Virus genome (UHGV): UHGV-1484817
Direction: 5' to 3' (one strand)
Origin: a virus
DNA: 64,000 bases
The translations under genes and the position numbers were made by a program. Shown in pieces: positions 14,883 through 56,079 of the stretch (position 1 is its first letter; each line of letters begins with the position of its first letter). The notes under the pieces are model-generated. The model had not been told where the DNA came from, made no database searches, and saw only the letters and a program-made list of their open reading frames with translations.

Positions 14883-15389
14883 TTATTGTTGATGAAGAAG
14901 CGCATTTTCATATTCCCTGACCATTAACGTAAGTACGCCGTGACTCCTGAAAACACGCGCCACTTCAATCTTATCTTCCAGCGCGAACGCAATTTTACTT
15001 AGACCAATTTTCTTCAGGAGATCAATCTTTGCAGGGCCGTCATTTCTGTCATCGGTGGCAGGACGCATAGATAGCAAAGGCTCAGCCCCATTTGTTACGT
15101 GCTTACGCAACCAAGCTCGTGTTTTATCCCTGGCTATCTCACAGCGCCCGGTTACAAACCAGAGCGTGTAAATGCTGGACAACTGGCGCACCATATCAAT
15201 AACTGGAGTGATGGGAGCATCAGTGTCACAGGCAAGGTTAAACTCGTTCCAGTGCTCTGTTAATGCACCTTTGCCAGGTGGTGGAAGTAAATGCAGCCTG
15301 TCTTCCGTTGCCTCTGATATCGTCCCATCAATATCTACTATGACGATGTACGGACGTTCCTGGTGTGCGTGTTTATTGAAAATACTCAA
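14883..15389 (-). CDS. HAD-superfamily phosphatase-like protein
   Basis: 168-aa ORF with IVDIDGTI (DxDGT) motif near the N-terminus. Confidence 0.6.
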   Translation of the reverse strand: MSIFNKHAHQERPYIVIVDIDGTISEATEDRLHLLPPPGKGALTEHWNEFNLACDTDAPITPVIDMVRQLSSIYTLWFVTGRCEIARDKTRAWLRKHVTNGAEPLLSMRPATDDRNDGPAKIDLLKKIGLSKIAFALEDKIEVARVFRSHGVLTLMVREYENALLHQQ

Positions 15390-15461: not shown

Positions 15462-16724
15462 TCAGCGAACGTAAATAGTGCCGCCGTTCTCTTTTTCCCA
15501 TGCATCGCTACGTGCATAGCAAACATCGAGAAGTCTTCTTGCCGCAGTTTCCTCTAAACCCAATTCGACAACCAACTGCTCATGACGGCGGGTAACCACA
15601 TCAAACAGGGTATGCAGCCCTTTAGTTGCCAGATCATCAATGAATTCCGGTTCGAACGGCAGCTCTGCCTCTGCCAACATAACCTCTTGCGCCCACTCAA
15701 CTCGACGGACCAGTTCCGGGCGGCGGCTTTCCATCTCTTTACAGATCAATTCATGGAAGAACTCTACCCAACCTTCCGGCTGGAACTCGCGGAAAATGGC
15801 CAACGGCTGGAAGTTTGGCATCAACCATTCGTTGATCCGGATATCAATGGCATAGCCCATGTCGCAGCAGAACTGATAAGCAAAGTCCAGCTTAGAAACG
15901 ATATAAGGACGCTCGTTATTGAACTCTTTAGGCGATGAGATCCCATAAGCCAGGAGGCGCGGGAAGAAGGAGATTTGCCCTAACGTCGGATGAAGTTTTC
16001 TTGCAGGGAAACGGCGCTCAGTAATGCCATACATTTCCTTCTTGAGCGTCGCAAATTTGGCATTCTCATTAACCAGCGCGGTAACCTCTGCTTTTTTATT
16101 AGCAAATGCCACGCGCGCTTCGCTTGCATCTTTAATAGTTTTTTTGAGCTGTTGGTTAAGGTCGGCGACCTGCTTACGCAGTTCCTGTCGCTCGCTTTTA
16201 GCTTTGTTATAGCGTTTCTCAAGGTTAAAAGGATCAAGTTTCATGATCTCTTTATATTGAGATTTTAGCGTTGAAATCTGTGAGTTCCGCAGTTCAACCA
16301 TCGCGGTCATTTCATTGAGCTTTGTTTCCAGCTCAATGCTTATACGTTCGGCATTATCAGCACGCTGGTTGGCGTCATGCGTCGCATCGTCGATCGCGTC
16401 CTGTTGCTGGCGTTTCAAATGTTCAATTTGCAGCTGAAGCTCTTCAATTTCTTTACCCTTCAGACCGAGATCCAACTGCATATTTTCAGCTGCATCTACC
16501 AGGGAGTTATGGCTATCAGCTTCTGCGTTATAAACATCAATAAGCTGTGCGTGAAGCATCTCCGCTGACTGAACCGCATTATCAAAAAAACGCGCTGTGA
16601 GGTCATCACAAATAACGCGGCGTTGCGCGGCCCGGATGTTCTGGATAATGGCCGGGATACCGGCATTCAGGACGTCAGGGATAGATACATTTTCGATTGA
16701 TTGGTTTTGTGCTGAAGTGCTCAT
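15462..16724 (-). CDS. Coiled-coil hypothetical protein (420 aa)
   Basis: Long heptad-rich central region (residues about 90-220), globular C-terminus; no recognisable catalytic motif. Confidence 0.55.
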   Translation of the reverse strand: MSTSAQNQSIENVSIPDVLNAGIPAIIQNIRAAQRRVICDDLTARFFDNAVQSAEMLHAQLIDVYNAEADSHNSLVDAAENMQLDLGLKGKEIEELQLQIEHLKRQQQDAIDDATHDANQRADNAERISIELETKLNEMTAMVELRNSQISTLKSQYKEIMKLDPFNLEKRYNKAKSERQELRKQVADLNQQLKKTIKDASEARVAFANKKAEVTALVNENAKFATLKKEMYGITERRFPARKLHPTLGQISFFPRLLAYGISSPKEFNNERPYIVSKLDFAYQFCCDMGYAIDIRINEWLMPNFQPLAIFREFQPEGWVEFFHELICKEMESRRPELVRRVEWAQEVMLAEAELPFEPEFIDDLATKGLHTLFDVVTRRHEQLVVELGLEETAARRLLDVCYARSDAWEKENGGTIYVR

Positions 16725-16725
16725 T

Positions 16726-16944
16726 TCAAAGTTCCGTATTAGCTTGTGCTTCGGTCATTTTTCCTAAGTATGAAGGAGGAAGGACTACGCAATTTGTATC
16801 CAGTCCCTCACCTATGGCAGCCTGTAAAATTCTGGCTAAGGTGAGTCTCTTGTTGCGATACCTGGTGATGACATGCCTGATACCGCCGGTCGGCGTAACA
16901 AAGGCGATCAGCCAGTAGTGATATTTCCGTCGGAATGGCCACAT
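16726..16944 (-). CDS. Small basic hypothetical protein downstream of a double C1 operator
   Basis: ORF 16726-16995 trimmed to MWPFRRKYHY... because the longer form would contain the operator at 16958-16974. Confidence 0.4.
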   Translation of the reverse strand: MWPFRRKYHYWLIAFVTPTGGIRHVITRYRNKRLTLARILQAAIGEGLDTNCVVLPPSYLGKMTEAQANTEL

Positions 16945-16957
16945 AGTGCACCTTGTA

Positions 16958-16974
16958 GATTGCTCTAATAAAAA
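16958..16974. promoter_or_regulatory. C1-type operator (forward orientation)
   Basis: ATTGCTCTAATAAAAAA, 14/17 match to consensus. Confidence 0.5.
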
Positions 16975-17010
16975 AACGTGATGAGTGTACATCACGTTTT
17001 AAAAATATGG

Positions 17011-17027
17011 AATTATTAGAGCAATAT
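17011..17027. promoter_or_regulatory. C1-type operator (reverse orientation)
   Basis: AATTATTAGAGCAATAT; forms an inverted pair with the site at 16958-16974, about 53 bp apart. Confidence 0.5.
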
Positions 17028-17728
17028 TATTCTGATTCTTGCTCAAAAAATGAGCTGATAAGGGGAAGCCAATCCTCTGACACTTCGCGAGGTCGCGGTT
17101 TGCCGTGGAAAAAGATTATTCGGCAGTCTTTTGGTAATGCCCCATTCCCCCTGGAGTAACGCGCGCTCGCATATTTTGAACCAGGTTCCACAACATCGGC
17201 CTTGTAACTTACAAACCATCCTGGATACAGATCCTGAAATGCTGGTGTATCATCGCCCATAACCTTTCGTAAGAACCCCTGGTCACCCCAGCACTCAGTA
17301 GTGACACAACGAGAAATCCAACCTTCCGGATCTTGCCAGAATGAACTCCAGATATGCGCTTTAACACTATTTGGTATCCACAGGGCACCGCTGCCACGAT
17401 ATTGTGGATGGTAAAAATCCCTAAGCATGGTGAAGCTGGTTGGTGGATGCTCTAGGATTGGGCGTATATCACCGGCAATAACCGTGTCCAAATCCAGATA
17501 GAACAGATCATCGGTTATATCCGGTCGGAACAACTCTATTTTCGCCCACCAGCCACGGCACTTTTGCCACTGGTTGATCAATGGGACAACTTTGACGCCA
17601 GGTACATGTAAACGCTTCAGGTCTGTCAGGCAAATAATTTCATAGCCTTTTGGCAGTTGATTAACCAGCCACTGCACATCGGAAGCGTTATAGTCACCAC
17701 CAGAGCGAAAAACTAAAGCAATCTTCAT
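17027..17728 (-). CDS. Putative nucleotide-sugar glycosyltransferase-like protein
   Basis: 233-aa ORF with a DxD-like motif (YLDLDTVI); assignment tentative. Confidence 0.45.
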
Positions 17729-18417
17729 GCTGCACCATCACCTTTCACTTTCATCAATGTCAGGTTTCCGCAAAATACGGCACCAGTGTCGATATACTGC
17801 TGATTCCAGAATGTCTTCGGGCTTTTCACCGGAGTGTGACCAAAGATAAAACGATCTGCGCCCGAAATTTCGCCACCAATATCATCCATCGAATCACTGA
17901 TACGCTCGCGCGCCCAGACAACGTTGAAAAGCGGCACCTCCTTACCGAATTGGTATTCATTATCCGGATAGTCGGCATGGGCTATAACGATAGTTTCTTG
18001 CCCGGTGTTCAACTCAATGATATAGGGCAGACGCTTTACCAGCTCCACCAGCGCCCAGGCTAATATTTCCTGATCAGTGTCCAGCATGAAGAACCATTGT
18101 CCGCCATTCATTAGCCAGTTATTCACGTTGCCATCTGGACTTAACGCATCAATCATCAGCCGCTCATGGTTCCCCATCACTGCCCTGAACCAGGGCATCT
18201 GCAATAGTTCAAGACATTCGACATTTTCAGTACCGCGATCGATAAGGTCGCCGACCGATATCAGTAAATCCTGCGCCGGGTCAAAATCCACACGATGGAG
18301 TTCGGACATCACTCTGGTGTAGCAACCATGCAGATCACCAACAACCCAGACATTCCTGTATTTGGTACCGTCGATACGGTGATAAATTGTGGGTGCCATC
18401 ATGTATTCTTCAGCCAT
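17725..18417 (-). CDS. ppp: Ser/Thr protein phosphatase (lambda-phosphatase-like metallophosphoesterase)
   Basis: GDLHG and GNHE metallophosphatase motifs; 230 aa. Confidence 0.75.
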
Positions 18418-19025
18418 TCTTTAAGAGTCATCTGCGGAATACCTCCCATTTTCCCGCATGAAACAACGTCAATCCGTTCACGCGCAGACTGGAATAACAA
18501 AGGCAGGTGACTTAGATTTTTTGGCGTGCCGCCGGAGTGAACGCGTGGTTCTTGTGTAGCGTCAACGCCCACCAGGGCGACATGTTTGAATCCGATATGG
18601 AAAGCCAGGTTCAGAGCGCCATATGCACTATTGCCGCTGGCAATTTCATTCTCATCTTCGCAAAGTCCGAAATGTGCGGACCAGCGCCACGCCCACCACT
18701 CGGGAGAATTCGTATTTTTTGGCTCCATGCCACGTTCAGCCACACGACGGAAGCACAGAACGCCGTCTCTGACTTCACGTTCTTTAACATCGGGTAGTGC
18801 CATGCAATAACAAACACCACGGCGACGGCGGCCACGACCAACGCGCCGCATATTGTCTGGCGATGGATCAAGTGTGAAAAAATAAGAAGCGCGGTTCAGC
18901 CAGTCGATGGCCCCATTGACCGCTATAATCGGCACTCCGCGCGGCGCAACAAAGTTTGCGGCGCTTGGGCCACTGCCGACGATAATAACGCGATCACTGC
19001 CTCTAAATTTATTCTTGGGAAACAT
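18399..19025 (-). CDS. MptE/DUF115-like Rossmann-fold protein
   Basis: IVGSGPS...IIAVN...VGVD motifs; paralogue of the upstream gene. Confidence 0.5.
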
Positions 19026-19585
19026 TGAATTGCACTGCTCCTACTTGCATTCAAAATATGTAAATCTGCGTGTTTTTTGCGGGTATCCAGGAACTGCTGT
19101 TGCCATTTTGAAATAGAAACCTGCGTTGGATTCCGTAGGGCTTGAGGGTGCGCGCCATGCCAATGAAGGCCGTTTTGCAGAGAACAGTCATAGCCGACTA
19201 ATACCACTACTTCAGCCCCTGATTCAGCAGCCAGACTGATAGCCTGCGCGCCGCTATTTACCCCTTCCGCCGGTCCACAATATCGCCTGTACTCCAACGA
19301 AAATGATTTCGCCGCCGCCAGGTTGGCTGTCACTTTGCGGAATCTCCCTCCCGGTATGGTGGATCCGTATTGCTTCCACCATGACAAATCACCGGCGTAT
19401 AAGGCATAAATGTCATCGAACATCTGCCAGGAATTGTTAACCGCTATGATTGAACAGCCAGTTTTTTCTATAGCAGCACAGTCCTCACGAGTGAGTGACG
19501 GACCGCTACCGACACAAAAAACAGTCCTAGTCGCCCTGGGTGGTATGTTCATTCTCAGCTGCAAATTCAGCCTCCAGGCGAGCAT
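18923..19585 (-). CDS. MptE/DUF115-like Rossmann-fold protein (paralogue)
   Basis: CVGSGPS...IIAVN...VGYD motifs; its 3-prime end overlaps the downstream paralogue by about 100 nt. Confidence 0.5.
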   Translation of the reverse strand: MLAWRLNLQLRMNIPPRATRTVFCVGSGPSLTREDCAAIEKTGCSIIAVNNSWQMFDDIYALYAGDLSWWKQYGSTIPGGRFRKVTANLAAAKSFSLEYRRYCGPAEGVNSGAQAISLAAESGAEVVVLVGYDCSLQNGLHWHGAHPQALRNPTQVSISKWQQQFLDTRKKHADLHILNASRSSAIQCFPRINLEAVIALLSSAVAQAPQTLLRRAECRL

Positions 19586-19748
19586 TCATTTCAGCGATTA
19601 CAGGGTCCACTACAGCATCTGTTTCCTGTTCATTACGCGGCATGACCGATGCCAGCGACTCATAATTAACCTTGGATGACACGATTATTCTCCCGATGTT
19701 AAAGTGCGCTACCACAAAGAGCGTAAATGCACTAATTAATTTATTATT

Positions 19749-20327
19749 TTAAGCAGCATGCAACCACTTATCGCCGTTCAATACATGCTCAATAGCCTCA
19801 CCCTTTTTAAGACTTATGTATTCCAGGATGGCGGTAATCGCTTGTTCTGCACCATACGCAAGAACAACGTAGTAGCCTTCCTCTCTAAGCCTGCGCATCC
19901 AGGCGATCTGCTCTTTCGTCGGGGCTTTACCATTTGGTTCTTTAAGCTCAATTCGCATGCCGTGATAAATACCGCATGCTTTATCGAGACTCATGTCCGG
20001 ATAACCTTTTTTCTGCCCTTCAGCCTTCATTTTCCCGGCGGTTGCTTTTGAACGCTTCCCTCCGTTAGGCGTTGCATGCAACAGCTCATAGATGTCAGGG
20101 TGCTTGCGTTCGAAGTAATCAAAAATGAAAACCTGCTCGAAGTGCTCGCAATTTCCGTCGCGCAGGTCTGGGTTCTTTGCCAGTGCTGCAAGTGCCTTCG
20201 CATGTGGAGAAACTTCTTTTACCGGCGCAAGCGATAAGAATGGATCCTTTTTGGTTTTTGGCCTGGACCGCCCCTTATTTCGACGCTCACTAAAAGCCTG
20301 AAACTCTTCCTCAGTAAAGCGCAACAT
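19749..20327 (-). CDS. VRR-NUC domain nuclease-like protein
   Basis: 192-aa ORF with GYPDMSL ... IELKEPNG motifs (PD-(D/E)xK core). Confidence 0.55.
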   Translation of the reverse strand: MLRFTEEEFQAFSERRNKGRSRPKTKKDPFLSLAPVKEVSPHAKALAALAKNPDLRDGNCEHFEQVFIFDYFERKHPDIYELLHATPNGGKRSKATAGKMKAEGQKKGYPDMSLDKACGIYHGMRIELKEPNGKAPTKEQIAWMRRLREEGYYVVLAYGAEQAITAILEYISLKKGEAIEHVLNGDKWLHAA

Positions 20328-20329
20328 AA

Positions 20330-20575
20330 TCAGTCAAATCCTGCCGGTCGCATGCCATATTTACGCTGTTTTGCGGCCTGCTCTTCCCTGTGCCATTGCG
20401 CACACTCAGCGTCACAATAGATGCCTGATTCGATCGGTTCATTGCAGTAACGACACTTCCCTGTAAATACCTGGCTCACGACCTGTGCCTGCTTTCTGAT
20501 GTTATCGATGGCCATGTCTTTGAGAGCTTCTAATTGATTCATGCTCAGCTCTGCATCATCAACACGTTCTGCCAA
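20330..20575 (-). CDS. TraR/DksA-family C4 zinc-finger protein
   Basis: 81-aa ORF with CRYCNEPIE ... YCDAEC. Confidence 0.6.
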   Translation of the reverse strand: MAERVDDAELSMNQLEALKDMAIDNIRKQAQVVSQVFTGKCRYCNEPIESGIYCDAECAQWHREEQAAKQRKYGMRPAGFD

Positions 20576-50129: not shown

Positions 50130-51167
50130 TTAACCTATTGCTACTGGTTTTAACAAACCAGCATCAAGTAGCTTGCGAGTTAACCACTGCTGGCCTTTAC
50201 CCGTTAATTGGGGCGTCAGCCGTATCTGGTAGCCATTTTCATCATCCAGCACCACTTCTTTCACCGTGAAATACCCGGCGTTAATGTACTGCTGGCGCGG
50301 TACGTTTTTGCGCGCACCAAAAGCCATGAGAATGCCGTTCTGGCGCAACCATGAGAAAAGGGCGTTTTGCTTAAGTCCAACGACCTTTGCAAAGTTCCCG
50401 ATCAGGATTCCATTGGCCACTGATACCCGGTCGGCAAAATCGACTTTAGGGGCTGCGGCCACCAGCTGTTGTTCCAACTGCATTTTCTGTTCTGCTAACT
50501 CGGCAGCCAGGCGTAGGGCTTCTGGTAATGTCTGGGGGATCGATGGGGTAGGGGAGTTTGCCTGCTGTAATTCTTCCAGTTTGTCGATCAGCGAACGGCG
50601 GACCGCTTTTGACTCGCGCGCGGCGACTCGCAGGGCTTGTTTGAAAGTCATGGTTATGACAAGCATTGATGTTTTGTTCATTTTTTCCACTACACTTTTT
50701 GTGTAGTGCTCACCATCAAGCTCATCGAGTATTTTTTCGATGAATTTGTTGTTCCGAACCTCTGGTTCCCCACATAACTTACGCGCTTCATTGACCATCT
50801 TTAACAGTGTCTGGCTGTCGATTGTGTCTCCAGTGTTGGAGATAACATTCACAGCTGGTGATGGCGTAGCTGAAGCAACAGGTGCTGTTTTTTCAACATT
50901 TAAATTATTACCGGTCATTCTATGTGCCTCCTTTCTCATTTCTGCTGCCACTGTTGCGTAACGTAGACGTCCTTGTTCAATCAAATAATCCCTGATCTCG
51001 GCTATCAGTAGCCTGTTGATCACAGCCTTATCTGTTCGGGTATAAAAACGTCTGGTTATCATGAAATAGTTAGCAATTGCGCCGGGGATCTCCCGTGTCG
51101 GCATACAGGCAGTATGCAAGGCGATCGCTTCGGCTATTTCATTACGGGTGACGAGAGGTGTTTTCAT
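50130..51167 (-). CDS. ant: Antirepressor Ant
   Basis: 345-aa ORF with KilAC-type C-terminus; start overlaps the icd stop; c4-like leader upstream. Confidence 0.8.
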   Translation of the reverse strand: MKTPLVTRNEIAEAIALHTACMPTREIPGAIANYFMITRRFYTRTDKAVINRLLIAEIRDYLIEQGRLRYATVAAEMRKEAHRMTGNNLNVEKTAPVASATPSPAVNVISNTGDTIDSQTLLKMVNEARKLCGEPEVRNNKFIEKILDELDGEHYTKSVVEKMNKTSMLVITMTFKQALRVAARESKAVRRSLIDKLEELQQANSPTPSIPQTLPEALRLAAELAEQKMQLEQQLVAAAPKVDFADRVSVANGILIGNFAKVVGLKQNALFSWLRQNGILMAFGARKNVPRQQYINAGYFTVKEVVLDDENGYQIRLTPQLTGKGQQWLTRKLLDAGLLKPVAIG

Positions 51168-51385
51168 AAACCCCCCTGAACGTCGGCAGAGAAGGGGAGG
51201 CTCCAGTAACTAAGTGAATTGCGCGAGTTAGTTGAAAAACGGGCAGTAAAAATGCAGGGGCCATCAGGCAATTGAGAGCGTGCTTCGTCTTCTGTTGCTG
51301 CGATAACGAAGTGATAGTGGTGTTTTTGGCAGGAGTAAAAGCGCCAGATAAATTCAGGATGAGTAGGGGTAGGGATAGTAGCCAC
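51164..51385 (-). CDS. icd: Icd-like small protein (73 aa)
   Basis: MATIPTPTHPEFIWRFYSCQK...; overlaps the ant start. Confidence 0.65.
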   Translation of the reverse strand: MATIPTPTHPEFIWRFYSCQKHHYHFVIAATEDEARSQLPDGPCIFTARFSTNSRNSLSYWSLPFSADVQGGL

Positions 51386-51389
51386 AATG

Positions 51390-51530
51390 GCAGCCTCCTT
51401 TTGCTAATTTAAGGAGCTACCGCGTGAGGTTCCAATCTCAATGGCGGTAGCACTGACTGGGTTGGAACTACCGGCGCAAAAGGGAACCGGCCTGCCTTTC
51501 GGCAGCCCAGCCAGCACTACCATTGATCTC
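51390..51530 (-). ncRNA. c4: c4-like antisense RNA / structured leader (boundaries approximate)
   Basis: Near-identical to 1205-1345; same hairpins. Confidence 0.4.
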
Positions 51531-51568
51531 GGAGCTATGTGCTACGTATGGTTGTGCGATGGCATGAC

Positions 51569-51593
51569 ACAAAAAAAGACGCTTTTGGCGTCT
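51569..51593 (-). terminator. Rho-independent terminator-like hairpin (minus strand)
   Basis: Same AGACGCCAAAAGCGTCT plus T-run as at 1386-1408. Confidence 0.45.
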
Positions 51594-51882
51594 ATGTCGC
51601 CTTTTGCATTATCCGGGGTTCCAATCCCGGCATCCGTTTTACTAAGATGCCTGTTTAGGATAAACCGAAAATGCATTAGCACGCAAGCAAGTTAATGTAG
51701 CATATGAAGCTAAAAAAATAAAATAATTAGAGCAACTTGCAACCATGTAAATTATTTCTCTGGTAACTAAAATGTATGAGTTTAATTGATATGGGTCAAA
51801 GATTTTGACCATTGCATGGTGAAACTTTATGCTACAAAATGTTATTTTAAGGCGTTTTATCTGTGGCAGGAGATAGTTAATC

Positions 51883-52233
51883 ATGTCATCTGAACATGTT
51901 CGTAAAGGTGTAACAAATGCGAAATTCAATGAAGAGCAATCTAATATTCTCTTTATTGAAATAGGAATTCTGTCAATACTGATAGGTTTAATGTCTAAAT
52001 CATGGTGGGCCTTTGGCGGTTCTTTTCTTGGACTGATTTTTAGTTTAAGAATAAAATTTCTAGCAATACCATTGATGATTGTATTTAGCTTAGTATGGGG
52101 AGCTATTGGCTATAGTATTGGTACTTTGTTTGAATCAACAGCAGCAAGTATTGTTTTGGGGGTAATTGCTTTCCTGAGTGGTTTGGGTACTCATTTTGCT
52201 GCCGTGCAATGGGCAAATGATATTGCAGAATAA
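51883..52233 (+). CDS. Small polytopic membrane protein (AT-rich cassette gene 1)
   Basis: 116-aa ORF with 3-4 predicted TM helices; low GC; preceded by the palindrome GGTCAAAGATTTTGACC at 51794-51810. Confidence 0.5.
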   Translation: MSSEHVRKGVTNAKFNEEQSNILFIEIGILSILIGLMSKSWWAFGGSFLGLIFSLRIKFLAIPLMIVFSLVWGAIGYSIGTLFESTAASIVLGVIAFLSGLGTHFAAVQWANDIAE

Positions 52234-52255
52234 TTACAGATAAGAAGCGAAAAGA

Positions 52256-52732
52256 ATGAATATGAGATGGTTTTTATTATTTGTATCGTTAGTTTCAGCA
52301 GGAACATTTGCAAAAATTGATCCTCTACAATGGAATGTAATTGAAGAGAGAGGGGGGAGAGAATATACAATCCATAATCATAATGGTGATAAGATAAGTT
52401 TTTTATGTGATATGGGATTCATGTATGGTTCACCAGATAGTGCAGGTAGTTTAGGCTTGTTGCTAAGTTCGTCGAATAATAAAAAAGAGTATAATGCTGA
52501 CAAGAATAAAATAGTATTAACTATAGATGGTGATCAATATCCTTTTAGCAATCTTGGATCAATGGTTGGAGATTCTTGGTGGTATGCCTTTTGGCAAGAT
52601 GCAGCAGATTCAAATGCTAATATGATTGATGCTTATGTTGATAATGAAAAAATTGCTACATTCCCTCTTTCTGGGCTAAGTAAGTTGTATCAACAAGCCA
52701 AAATGGATGGATGTATTAAACGAGGCAAATGA
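52256..52732 (+). CDS. Secreted/periplasmic protein (AT-rich cassette gene 2)
   Basis: N-terminal signal peptide MNMRWFLLFVSLVSAGTFA; two Cys; low GC. Confidence 0.5.
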   Translation: MNMRWFLLFVSLVSAGTFAKIDPLQWNVIEERGGREYTIHNHNGDKISFLCDMGFMYGSPDSAGSLGLLLSSSNNKKEYNADKNKIVLTIDGDQYPFSNLGSMVGDSWWYAFWQDAADSNANMIDAYVDNEKIATFPLSGLSKLYQQAKMDGCIKRGK

Positions 52733-52806
52733 TCTTTCTGTGTTAAAGATTAACGCAATCAATAAAACATTGGTTGCGTAATATTCTATTATAGAAATGG
52801 AATAAT

Positions 52807-53841
52807 ATGACAAAAATTACTAATTCTAATGAGTTGAAGTTGCTGTATAAACAGTCAGTGCTCATTCCATCATACAAAGATCACGTAGCGATCTTGCAAA
52901 AACAATTAGGAATAGAAAAACATTCTTTTCAAAATATGCCAAGATTGAATAGACAAGCTGTAATTAGTAACTCTCTTCGAAAACAATTGGCTAGTATACC
53001 GAACTTGGCTGGAATAGGCAGCAAGTATCGTGAACATATCGCGATTTTACAGAAACAGACTCAGGCTCTTTTCCCTCATGATGCAAATAGATATATTCAA
53101 ATGCTAAGGAAACAGGCCGAAATAGCTATGCCATTACGAAAACAGCTTGAGGTGCTTAATAAGCAAGCTGGTTTAAATAACATGCAAGCGATACTTAAAG
53201 AATTACAACAAAGTGCAAGTTATAAAATAGATGTAAGCCAAGACATAAAGAAAGTACTAGATCACTATGCTAGAACAAGAAATGCTTCATTACATCAAAT
53301 AATAGAGCAGGGGATTTCATCTATTGCGCAGGCTTATGCTGAAGGTGCTACTGAAACATCACACACCAAAAGTAATGTTCAAAATAAAGGATTAAATAAA
53401 CCTAGCTCAAAGTTTGTTGATTCATTTAAAGAGCTTCCTTATCCACTGCAATGGTTACTAATGGTTATATTTTCTCAAGTTGTGTTTGGTGCTTTTATTG
53501 ATTACGGAAAAGAGAAAACCTTGCTGGGAATACACAAGGCAGAATCATATTTTATATCTCTGTTTGAGGATAAACCAATATCAAAACAACAATTAATTAA
53601 AGAAAACAAAGAAATTAGTTGGGAAGATCTCAATGGTTTTCGTTTTATAACTGGTGAGAACGTAAGATTACACGTCAGTCCTTCTATAAATAGTGAGGTG
53701 ATTGAATGCATTGGCAAAAATACTATAGTGGCTGTTTTAGATAAAAAAGATCGCCAATGGCTTTTCGTGCAGGTTAAATCAGGGGACGAGTTTATTACTG
53801 GATGGATTACACGAACATACACAAAGCCTCTTAAGGCTTGA
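52807..53841 (+). CDS. Membrane-anchored protein with C-terminal SH3b-like domain (AT-rich cassette gene 3)
   Basis: Repeated (H/A)ILQKQ and LRKQ motifs N-terminally, one TM helix (LQWLLMVIFSQVVFGAFI), C-terminal SH3b-like segment. Confidence 0.5.
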   Translation: MTKITNSNELKLLYKQSVLIPSYKDHVAILQKQLGIEKHSFQNMPRLNRQAVISNSLRKQLASIPNLAGIGSKYREHIAILQKQTQALFPHDANRYIQMLRKQAEIAMPLRKQLEVLNKQAGLNNMQAILKELQQSASYKIDVSQDIKKVLDHYARTRNASLHQIIEQGISSIAQAYAEGATETSHTKSNVQNKGLNKPSSKFVDSFKELPYPLQWLLMVIFSQVVFGAFIDYGKEKTLLGIHKAESYFISLFEDKPISKQQLIKENKEISWEDLNGFRFITGENVRLHVSPSINSEVIECIGKNTIVAVLDKKDRQWLFVQVKSGDEFITGWITRTYTKPLKA

Positions 53842-53970
53842 ATTTTATCACCGTATCTTGGGGCTGGGTGTTGATGACGATGTGCTACTTGAAGTACTTG
53901 GGTTTTTTAACGCAGCATCTGAAATGTGTAGACTGACCGGTAACAAATGACAACTCGTAGAATCGGGTAA

Positions 53971-54561
<591 letters not shown>

Positions 54562-54571
54562 GGGGGCTGAT

Positions 54572-55183
54572 ATGGGGCTTAATGTTGCTTCAGTAAAGTC
54601 TTATGTATCTTCGGCATTAACGACGACATTATTTGGCTCCGGCGTTGGTGAGCGGGAAGTTGGTAAGCTGACGTCAATCATCATGAACAAAATGCTGTTC
54701 GCGCAAGGATGGCAGTTCTCTGTCGAAGTTGATGGTCTGGAGGGGGCAGACTTCTTTGCTAAAGACATTACCTACCACGATTACAGCATCGAATATGAAA
54801 CGATTAAAATCGGCGGAGGGAATATCCTTCAGCCAACGGAGCGTTCGCCTGGGCAGATAACAATGATGGTCAGGGATACCGTTGATGGCCTCGTTTTGGA
54901 CTGGTTTAAGACGGCAAAAAGTCGGGTGATCAATCCGGACGGTACCGGGAATATACCGTCTAAATATTTGCTCAATGTGCGTATTTATCGGTTGCTGTCC
55001 TCCGGTTTAACCAAACTGGAAAATGAGATGACGGTATTCCCGGTCACTACCGGCGATGTCACCTATGCGCGGGATCAGGTTACGGAATTTAAGTCATTCC
55101 CAATGACCTTCGCATTGCACAGCACGTTTAACCAATCCTCAAGTTCTTTAGCTTCCCTTCTGGGCTTTAGTTTTTCGCTTTAA
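54572..55183 (+). CDS. Hypothetical tail-module protein
   Basis: 203-aa ORF tightly following the previous gene. Confidence 0.45.
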   Translation: MGLNVASVKSYVSSALTTTLFGSGVGEREVGKLTSIIMNKMLFAQGWQFSVEVDGLEGADFFAKDITYHDYSIEYETIKIGGGNILQPTERSPGQITMMVRDTVDGLVLDWFKTAKSRVINPDGTGNIPSKYLLNVRIYRLLSSGLTKLENEMTVFPVTTGDVTYARDQVTEFKSFPMTFALHSTFNQSSSSLASLLGFSFSL

Positions 55184-55197
55184 ATTAAGGAGCAAGG

Positions 55198-56079
55198 ATG
55201 CTTTTACCTCTTTTCCCGCTACCATCGCGGCCAACTGAATTGATCCAGTTCCGTCAGCCAAATATTGCTGATGCGATGCGTTTCAACTCGATAACACCGG
55301 AGGAACAAGAACAACAGACAACGGCGTATTTAAAAGCCTTGCTGGCTGAACCCGCGAAATATGATCCCCTGACATGGACGGCGCAGGACCGGATTACCGC
55401 GTTATGGTGGATATTTACTGGCTCCCGTGAAACACCGGTCGAGACATTCACCTACACCTGTAAACATTGCGGTAAAGAGCATTATTACGATTGCGATATG
55501 AATGCTCTGGCTGAAGATATCCAGGTCCTGGAAGTGGAACCGTTCATTGACGATATTGAGGTGTCTGTAGAGGGCGTGCCTTATCAATGGCGTATCGTGC
55601 CGCTTGATGGTTGGGCAATGGAAATGCTGGAGATGCGCCGTGCAGCATTGCCACCTGAAGACGACGCGGAATTCAAAGAAGCGATCGTTGATTTGCGTTT
55701 TTGGGAATTCGCTTATCAGTGTGAACTTTATAACGATGTTAGCGGTACTCGTGAAGAGCAGGCTGAGCGTCGTTATGAAACGATCAAACGGATGGCCATT
55801 GATACTGAATTTATGAAGCTGGCGGCACACATCCGGGTGGCTCATGAAAAGCTCGAACATGGTTTACCGTGCTACATCGATAAAGGCGAAATGCGTCTTC
55901 GTCTCCCGCCGCACAAATGCCCAAACCAGGATACAAAGGAGTCCACAGAGGGTGCGTATACCCGTCTGTGGGTGCCCTTTCGGGCTACCGACTTCATTCC
56001 ACAGGTGGGGATTGAAAAGCTATCAGACCTTAGTGTCCAACCTGGTTTTGTATGGGGGTATACCGATTCAGGACGCTGA
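55198..56079 (+). CDS. Hypothetical tail-module protein
   Basis: 293-aa ORF with a CxxC...CxxC cluster. Confidence 0.45.
   Translation: MLLPLFPLPSRPTELIQFRQPNIADAMRFNSITPEEQEQQTTAYLKALLAEPAKYDPLTWTAQDRITALWWIFTGSRETPVETFTYTCKHCGKEHYYDCDMNALAEDIQVLEVEPFIDDIEVSVEGVPYQWRIVPLDGWAMEMLEMRRAALPPEDDAEFKEAIVDLRFWEFAYQCELYNDVSGTREEQAERRYETIKRMAIDTEFMKLAAHIRVAHEKLEHGLPCYIDKGEMRLRLPPHKCPNQDTKESTEGAYTRLWVPFRATDFIPQVGIEKLSDLSVQPGFVWGYTDSGR

Follow-up and report, generated by a model that had tools for sequence, protein, structure and literature searches.

Gene layout of the locus

The window analyzed here is the 64,000-nucleotide (nt) stretch of UHGV virus genome UHGV-1484817, and the subject of this analysis is a group of four consecutive minus-strand genes at positions 17027-19585. 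A preliminary description, made from the sequence alone, had read these genes as a DxD-motif glycosyltransferase-like protein, a lambda-type phosphatase and two overlapping paralogues of the MptE/DUF115 family, and had suggested that they serve one sugar or modification pathway. We found that the window is a P1-like phage-plasmid, with positions 16500-20500 matching phage P1 (98.8%) and Salmonella phage SJ46 (99.2%) at full length, and that the four genes are P1 pmgO, pmgP, ppp and pmgQ (named hdmB, hdmC, ppp and hdmD in phage P7). Their lengths and the 103-nt overlap of pmgO and pmgP match the P1 record, in which pmgO, pmgP and pmgQ are labelled only “putative morphogenetic function”; the sequence features themselves were thus already on record.

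All four genes lie on the minus strand. pmgO (18923..19585) encodes a 220-amino-acid (aa) putative cytidine monophosphate (CMP)-ulosonic-acid glycosyltransferase that is MptE-like, Maf-like and GT42-like; pmgP (18399..19025) encodes a 208-aa paralogue of PmgO with an insertion of ~70 aa; ppp (17725..18417) encodes a 230-aa Ser/Thr metallophosphatase of the lambda/NinI type; and pmgQ (17027..17728) encodes a 233-aa putative retaining hexosyltransferase that is GT8-like (GT-A fold, DxD motif). The genes span 2.56 kb and are tightly packed: pmgO and pmgP overlap at 18923..19025, with pmgP in the -1 frame, pmgP and ppp overlap by 19 nt, and ppp and pmgQ by 4 nt. A terminator-like hairpin on the same strand (16973..17000; an 11-bp stem followed by a T run) lies 27 nt past the pmgQ stop codon and likely marks the end of the pmgO-pmgQ transcription unit. 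In the P1 record, the next features beyond the end of pmgQ are C1 operators and the promoter of pmgR. Because P1 has C1 operators and a late promoter upstream, we expect pmgO-pmgQ to be expressed in lytic growth.

PmgO and PmgP are distant paralogues with a Maf-like fold

PmgO and PmgP scored 23.4 and 21.0 bits, respectively, against the Pfam family MptE-like (DUF115, PF01973), both below its gathering threshold of 34.6 bits. A natural protein in which the two are fused (P0171) exceeded this threshold (44.6 bits), and several homologues carry a precomputed PF01973 match. BLASTP aligned PmgO with PmgP over just 36 residues; profiles of the two families aligned end to end using hhalign (probability 97.7%, E 1.5e-12), which makes them old paralogues and bears out the relationship proposed in the preliminary description.

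We modelled the PmgO and PmgP proteins of the window singly and compared the models with known structures. For both proteins the best matches were the Maf flagellin glycosyltransferase, archaeal MptE and, in third place, the sialyltransferase CstI, and the Rossmann-like fold of these three is also present in PmgO and PmgP. Across the alignments of both families, the same columns are kept, namely an N-terminal GxGPS followed by AVN, NSG/A and L-x-G-x-D; the Rossmann cores of PmgO and PmgP carry GSGPS, AVN and NSG/GxD, and beyond the GxD strand lies an invariant His. This His is a candidate catalytic residue, and we take its position to differ from that in CstII. Residues 1-17 of PmgO are unconserved and residues 1-13 have a predicted local distance difference test (pLDDT) value below 50, and M12 (19552) may be an alternative, perhaps the true, start; the final ~19 residues form an unconserved tail. 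Database entries for pmgO often start far downstream (166-174 aa) and so lose the GSGPS motif. Two product names have also spread among homologues of PmgO and PmgP: “norphogenetic protein,” which stems from a misspelling (“norphogenetic”) in the pmgM note of the P1 record, and “alpha-2,3-sialyltransferase,” which is without experimental basis.

A search of curated models (WaaZ TIGR04437, PseD/Maf NF050051 and CstII) gave no significant match for PmgO or PmgP. The best E value in their families was 2.9e-4 to WaaZ (20 bits, where the model's cut-off is 200). This model was matched weakly by 10 of the 63 family members, through their N-terminal GxGPS/AVN region; E values to CstII were 0.36-0.73. 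E. coli WaaZ itself matches Pfam MptE-like (E 6.9e-7). Direct homology to WaaZ was rejected, since the two family profiles reached no more than ~15% probability when aligned to this protein with hhalign; we retained the link at the level of the superfamily.

Several known systems come close to PmgO and PmgP. The nonulosonic-acid O-glycosyltransferase of flagellin, Maf (Magnetospirillum Maf, PDB 5MU5), is ~630 aa long, with extra domains at both its N- and its C-terminus; PmgO and PmgP are cores of ~200 aa with sequence identity of only 16-17% to it. Its setting differs too, as no flagellin or nonulosonate-synthesis genes adjoin pmgO and pmgP, and both donor and acceptor are putative here. The Campylobacter lipooligosaccharide sialyltransferases CstI and CstII (CAZy GT42) have E values to PmgO and PmgP that are not significant at the sequence level, and E. 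coli K-12, the laboratory host of P1, is not known to make CMP-sialic acid. WaaZ of E. coli, which adds the third 3-deoxy-D-manno-octulosonic acid (Kdo III) to the core of lipopolysaccharide (LPS) and is classified as CAZy GT73 and TIGR04437, belongs to the same MptE-like superfamily; unlike the genes studied here, waaZ is a chromosomal gene of the LPS operon. CMP-Kdo, the donor of WaaZ, is available in every host in which we found these genes. From the ranking of folds, the superfamily membership of WaaZ and the glycan-enzyme context described below, we infer that PmgO and PmgP are CMP-ulosonic-acid transfer enzymes, though an MptE-like fold would also allow diphosphokinase chemistry.

PmgQ resembles GT8 glycosyltransferases

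PmgQ belongs to PHROG 1962 (E 3.7e-128). As a single sequence it had no Pfam match, including none to Glyco_transf_8 at E<=1. A family profile built from 33 homologues matched GT8 structures in the PDB from the DxD motif to the C-terminus: Gat1 (6mw5, E 8.3e-7), GlyE (5gvv, E 0.009) and glycogenin (E ~0.05). Invariant among the 33 sequences are W60-W61, K63, D79-L-D-T82, G148-D149, S174, K176, H208-G209, P211 and P213, of which D79-L-D81-T is the DxD motif of GT-A type enzymes, in line with the DxD glycosyltransferase-like protein of the preliminary description. Its C-terminal FHG-x-P-[RK]-P resembles the H-x-x-G-x-x-K-P-W motif of GT8. The GT8 relatives include the Skp1 alpha-galactosyltransferase Gat1, Streptococcus pneumoniae GlyE, glycogenin and LPS core enzymes of the WaaJ/WaaO type. 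Typical GT8 enzymes are longer than PmgQ, which has a WW-x-K motif of its own. By this family resemblance, PmgQ would add a hexose from a uridine diphosphate (UDP)-sugar.

The pmgO/pmgP overlap is conserved

We compared 29 junctions at which a pmgO-like gene is followed directly by a pmgP-like gene. Overlaps of 37-133 nt were found in 23 of them and overlaps of 4-13 nt in 5, and the genes were separated in 1; in a further locus (L106), O and P are fused. The pmgP frame was -1 at 27/29 junctions, including all 23 with the longer overlaps. In most of these 23, the pmgP ATG arises where a codon ending in A precedes the TGY Cys codon of a conserved C-F-P-R motif of PmgO. In the window this ATG (19025-19023) has, 12 nt 5' of it and within pmgO, a Shine-Dalgarno-like AGGAG (19038..19042, minus strand), as read from the sequence. 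Over the 16 codons from the annotated pmgP ATG to the GSGPS motif, the frame has no other ATG, GTG or TTG, so an internal start of pmgP, one of the explanations offered by the preliminary description, is unlikely.

To characterize the overlap, we calculated conservation by codon position in 23 distinct sequences. Third positions were relaxed in the parts coding for O only (0.47) and for P only (0.50). Within the first 40 nt of the overlap, all three codon positions were at 0.64-0.71 and the third was not relaxed, which indicates dual coding over these ~40 nt. In the other ~60 nt that the two P1 genes share, only the P frame is conserved; here the unconserved tail of PmgO, which is shorter in close relatives, runs over the GSGPS motif of PmgP.

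The preliminary description had also raised a frameshift, and a programmed -1 ribosomal frameshift yielding a PmgO-PmgP fusion would agree with the prevalence of the -1 frame, with the natural in-frame fusion P0171, and with two slippery heptamers (X XXY YYZ) that are in phase in P1, TTTCCCA and AAATTTA. The latter, at 18985-18991 on the minus strand and 16 nt into the overlap, we judged to be coincidental. Among eight junctions searched for in-phase heptamers, the Citrobacter rodentium homologue (94-nt overlap) has none, and the others have different ones or lack them, so that no heptamer is conserved; by our own estimate, one in-phase heptamer is expected by chance in ~31 codons at about 12%. 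Moreover, pmgP has its own ATG and AGGAG sequence, members of PHROG 2111 align from residue 1, and the -1 frame follows from an ATG built on xxA-TGY. We therefore regard programmed frameshifting as extremely unlikely. The long overlap is genuine, ancestral and inherited, and is neither an error nor a programmed frameshift. It probably couples the translation of the two paralogues. PmgO and PmgP probably work as a pair, as the existence of a natural O-P fusion argues, and may form a heterodimer.

pmgO, pmgP and pmgQ recur together across unrelated phages

We ran hidden Markov models of the PmgO, PmgP and PmgQ families on prophage and phage loci from one genome per species, on IMG/VR, on named phages and on contigs encoding individual homologues, and compared about 60 loci in total. 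In diverse viral contigs, a pmgQ-like gene lay <=1.5 kb from the pmgP-like gene in 25/25 cases and a pmgO-like gene was present in 21/25, with PmgP the best conserved of the three proteins. All three genes co-occurred in nearly all genome loci with sufficiently long contigs. The hosts comprise Enterobacteriaceae, Pseudomonas, Zhongshania, Microbulbifer, Methylophilaceae, Commensalibacter, Brevundimonas, Ochrobactrum, Rhizobiales and one Bacteroidota genome, and all identified hosts are LPS-bearing diderms. For example, a lambdoid prophage of C. rodentium has the three genes in a row, 38-58% identical to those of P1, and they are also found in E. coli myophage IME392 and Xanthomonas jumbo phage XacN1.

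Natural fusions join the partners in several arrangements: O-P (P0171), P-Q (P0220 and P0287), Q-P (P0308), a metagenomic 616-aa protein consisting of PmgQ, PmgP and an S-adenosylmethionine (SAM) methyltransferase (P0269), methyltransferase-P (P0303), and methyltransferase-Q in XacN1 (ORF373, L191 5630-6946). These fusions are independent of one another, and they tie the partners together. Variants of the gene set further carry class I, Methyltransf_24 and FkbM methyltransferases, a hexapeptide acyltransferase, and extra Nucleotid_trans-like GT-A enzymes. IME392 also has a 285-aa open reading frame (ORF) that is GT4-like by eye only. From these comparisons, pmgO, pmgP and pmgQ are a widespread mobile module, and it is highly probable that they serve as one unit for building a glycan. 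The single pathway suggested in the preliminary description thus holds up for these three genes, on the strength of their co-occurrence and fusions across unrelated phages, as does their synteny in relatives; neither extends to ppp.

The four genes might, instead, be functionally unrelated neighbours in a late operon, with an overlap produced by annotation or sequencing. Ppp is indeed unrelated to the other three proteins, and all four genes are individually dispensable: single-gene knockouts of P1 had no plaquing or antirestriction defect save for five named essential genes, none of them pmgO, pmgP, ppp or pmgQ (PMC9024508), and knockdown of these four by CRISPR interference (CRISPRi) had no effect (PMC10695390). 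The four genes are therefore dispensable for plaque formation by P1. Against unrelated neighbours, the synteny of O, P and Q is kept across unrelated phage types and across phyla, and multiple independent fusions have occurred; against an artefact, the overlap recurs in independent genomes and under dual-coding constraint. For pmgO, pmgP and pmgQ this explanation is already contradicted, and overall we give it a practically negligible chance.

The recurring gene content also bears on the chemistry of PmgO and PmgP. Archaeal MptE, the namesake of PF01973, is a 6-hydroxymethyl-7,8-dihydropterin diphosphokinase (PDB 8SD5), and PmgO and PmgP could be diphosphokinases like it or like thiamine pyrophosphokinases, or else enzymes that depend on nucleotides in another way. 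Their substrate, either a small molecule or a hydroxymethyl group, would be activated and then processed by PmgQ together with the accessory enzymes, for example towards a metabolite, a cofactor or a nucleic-acid modification. Such a role is permitted by the fold, but both proteins match the Maf glycosyltransferase best, and their constant partner is a GT8-like glycosyltransferase that is sometimes fused to PmgP. The accessory genes encode typical enzymes of glycan assembly and tailoring, which argues for glycosyltransferase over diphosphokinase chemistry. The context of the module is one of glycosyltransferases and sugar tailoring, not of pterin or thiamine genes: we saw no pterin, folate or methanopterin genes near it in the loci compared, nor thiamine or hydroxymethyl-pyrimidine genes nearby. 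We consider a diphosphokinase role very unlikely.

DNA glycosylation was rejected. P1 DNA is not known to carry more than ordinary methylation, and no glycosylating genes linked to 5mYOX or ThyS were noted among the neighbours of the examined loci. Described phage DNA glycosyltransferases are of other families, JGT-like GT-A or T4 BGT-like GT-B, and have other gene partners, being tied to 5mYOX or ThyS genes. We have no sign of the DNA modification hinted at in the preliminary description, nor of pterin chemistry.

Ppp is a phosphatase outside the conserved module

Ppp has a calcineurin-like metallophosphoesterase domain (Pfam Metallophos PF00149, 57.9 bits against a threshold of 21.5, residues 22-197) and belongs to the “NinI-like” PHROG 246 (E 1.5e-111), as expected of the lambda-type phosphatase first described; it is 64% identical to lambda phosphatase per the P1 record. 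It also matched the PrpA/PrpB-type NCBIfam models PRK11439 and PRK09968 (E 1e-80 and 1e-70), the former with 270.8 bits, below its cut-off of 326. Lambda phosphatase NinI and E. coli PrpA/PrpB are thus relatives, but P1 ppp lies within the glycosylation module and not in a nin region. Among the loci compared, those of the P1/P7 lineage alone had ppp; other P1-like contigs of ~90-100 kb that have O, P and Q contiguous lack it. We conclude that ppp is a P1/P7-lineage insertion between pmgP and pmgQ, outside the conserved module.

A second phosphatase gene, pap (14883-15389), lies within 3 kb of ppp in P1. Pap matches PF25109, the HAD phosphatase domain of polynucleotide kinase-phosphatase (E 1.3e-11), and Ppp has a weak match to bacterial Pnkp (TIGR04075, E 5e-10), so that the two phosphatases are reminiscent of RNA/DNA end-healing enzymes. 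We had considered Pap as a sugar-phosphate phosphatase feeding the pathway and ruled this out, as Pap is of the HAD_PNKP type and no link to sugar metabolism was found.

The module is often placed among head genes

We next characterized where the module lies. In HK97-like prophages it is directly 3' of the major capsid gene (L093, L110, L111, L112, L113, L116, L121, L124 and L126), and elsewhere it follows genes for the large terminase, the portal or MuF (L094, L099 and L101-L105). Lambdoid and podovirus-like genomes have it flanked by the lysis cassette on one side and by the terminase or other late genes on the other (L002, L120, L122 and L106), and in L098 and L109 Q-P lies between holin and endolysin. 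The capsid protein adjoining the module in L093, the only one checked, has no extension past the capsid domain and so gives no support from this angle.

In prophages of the Rhizobiales type, the gene 5' of the pmgO-like gene, either adjacent or with a single short ORF in between, codes for a protein with collagen repeats (Enterovirga, L104 4188-5378) or a protein with a weak CBM_5_12 match (Mesorhizobium, L102 4617-5672; Rhizobium, L103 4482-5357). These upstream proteins are candidates for glycosylated head-decoration or fibre proteins.

Copies of the module also occur in chromosomal, non-prophage islands of Pseudescherichia (L108 5366-15359) and Serratia plymuthica (L109 2674-10603). In both, a pmgO-like gene lies in apparent operons with Big_1 (invasin/intimin-like) proteins, sharing their orientation at close spacing, with P and Q a few kb off; several of these Big_1 proteins have no obvious signal peptide. 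They are possible acceptors in these islands. Neither the window nor any of the phage loci gave a homologue when searched by phmmer with the Serratia and Pseudescherichia Big_1 proteins, and we dropped Big_1 (Ig-like) proteins as acceptors in phages.

These placements have to be weighed against a role at the host surface. The module could remodel an envelope glycolipid of the host, for instance the inner or outer core of LPS, with PmgO and PmgP acting on a lipid-linked glycan as WaaZ or CstII do, and PmgQ like the GT8 glucosyl/galactosyltransferases of the LPS core; the change could hide the receptor of the phage and so guard against superinfection or against the loss of progeny to cell debris. 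We treat this possibility as serious, though on balance unlikely. P1 adsorbs to the LPS core, and the outer-core hexosyltransferases of E. coli LPS are GT8 enzymes. WaaZ shares the MptE-like superfamily and its model is weakly matched by the 10 family members noted above, a lipooligosaccharide sialyltransferase ranks third among structural matches, and PmgO, PmgP and PmgQ are small single-domain proteins, as LPS enzymes are. Some copies lie in or beside lysis cassettes (L098, L109, L002 and L106), and the LPS-bearing nature of all identified hosts fits as well. Known phage genes for LPS conversion, however, are expressed in the lysogen and lie near attachment or immunity regions, whereas most prophages have the module within a cluster of head genes and P1 has it in a late, C1-repressed operon. 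LPS produced solely in late infection would make up little of the outer membrane, the two chromosomal islands interleave the genes with adhesin-like Big_1 proteins and not with LPS genes, and the P1 mutants plate normally.

Other features of the region

A small ORF, pmgN (pmgN region 19527-19715), overlaps the 5' end of pmgO; it was essential by CRISPRi (PMC10695390) and non-essential by knockout (PMC9024508). Upstream in the same operon as pmgO-pmgQ, pmgM (19749-20327) has a product with a VRR-NUC nuclease domain (Pfam E 3e-4, just under threshold); it is unrelated to the glycosylation genes. Farther along, only 43% of window positions 51000-55500 has a counterpart in any of the P1-like phage records, and the matched parts bear the annotations simC, icd, pmgC and tub. 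This interval contains a low-GC segment (52000-54000; 35% compared with ~48%) whose two ORFs encode proteins of 158 aa (52256-52732), with an N-terminus like that of a signal peptide, and of 344 aa (52807-53841). The segment looks like a strain-specific accessory insertion.

Discussion

We propose that pmgO-pmgP-pmgQ is a self-contained, late-expressed glycan-building module of lytic growth. In this proposal, PmgO and PmgP would each amount to a minimal catalytic domain like those of Maf, CstI and WaaZ, and would act as inverting CMP-ulosonic-acid transferases that use a donor supplied by the host. CMP-Kdo would be the most likely donor because it is the only CMP-sugar of this kind that the identified hosts, all Gram-negative, have in common, and because the module is without sugar-synthesis genes. 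With the hexose contributed by PmgQ, a short oligosaccharide would be built, which in other phages may be methylated, acylated or extended by the accessory enzymes of the module. A virion protein, most likely of the head, would be the acceptor; we favour this because of the repeated placement among head genes and because several relatives of these enzymes are directed at proteins (Maf for PmgO and PmgP; Gat1, GlyE and glycogenin for PmgQ). The proposal builds on the identities and folds observed, the paralogy of PmgO and PmgP, the synteny and fusions of the three genes, their genomic contexts and the conservation of the overlap. Taken in full, with ulosonic-acid donors and a virion-protein acceptor, we advance it tentatively, as having a little less than an even chance. 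In its broadest form, Gram-negative phages would widely O-glycosylate their own virion proteins with a Kdo glycan made from host CMP-Kdo and UDP-hexose, and the chromosomal copies would glycosylate Big_1 proteins; this we hold to be decidedly unlikely, and protein-linked Kdo has, to our knowledge, not been described.

Under the gene names themselves, and in the literature on phage DUF115/MptE proteins and on capsid glycosylation, our search turned up no functional work on these genes. The nearest concept is virion glycosylation in mycobacteriophages, whose glycosyltransferase genes, sometimes accompanied by methyltransferases, have been taken to indicate capsid glycosylation, i.e. decoration of virion proteins (PMC11256854). 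That case differs in its enzyme families and its actinobacterial hosts, and for O-P-Q virion glycosylation is suggested by gene position.

The P1 gene cluster itself has long been annotated. What is new is that O, P and Q appear to be a mobile module for glycosylation that is widespread and associated with phage head genes, with enzymes of the Maf/CstI/WaaZ and GT8 lineages; that ppp is a lineage-specific insertion; and that the long overlap reflects conserved dual coding, a clean example of an ancient conserved gene overlap under such constraint. The misleading automated names “alpha-2,3-sialyltransferase” and “norphogenetic protein” can be corrected accordingly, and the multi-domain fusions (P0269, P0220, P0308 and XacN1 ORF373) would be useful as single-chain targets for biochemistry or structure prediction.

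P1 is a workhorse of E. coli genetics, and an orphan cluster that carried placeholder labels now becomes a testable hypothesis of virion or envelope glycosylation in Gram-negative phages. If Kdo glycosylation of virions is true, P1, with its existing knockouts, would be a ready model. The module recurs in the head-gene clusters of unrelated phages, from lambdoid prophages to jumbo phages, and glycosylation could affect immune recognition, particle stability, adsorption and evasion of host defences, which would be relevant to phage therapy, to P1-derived vectors and to phage-plasmids that spread resistance.

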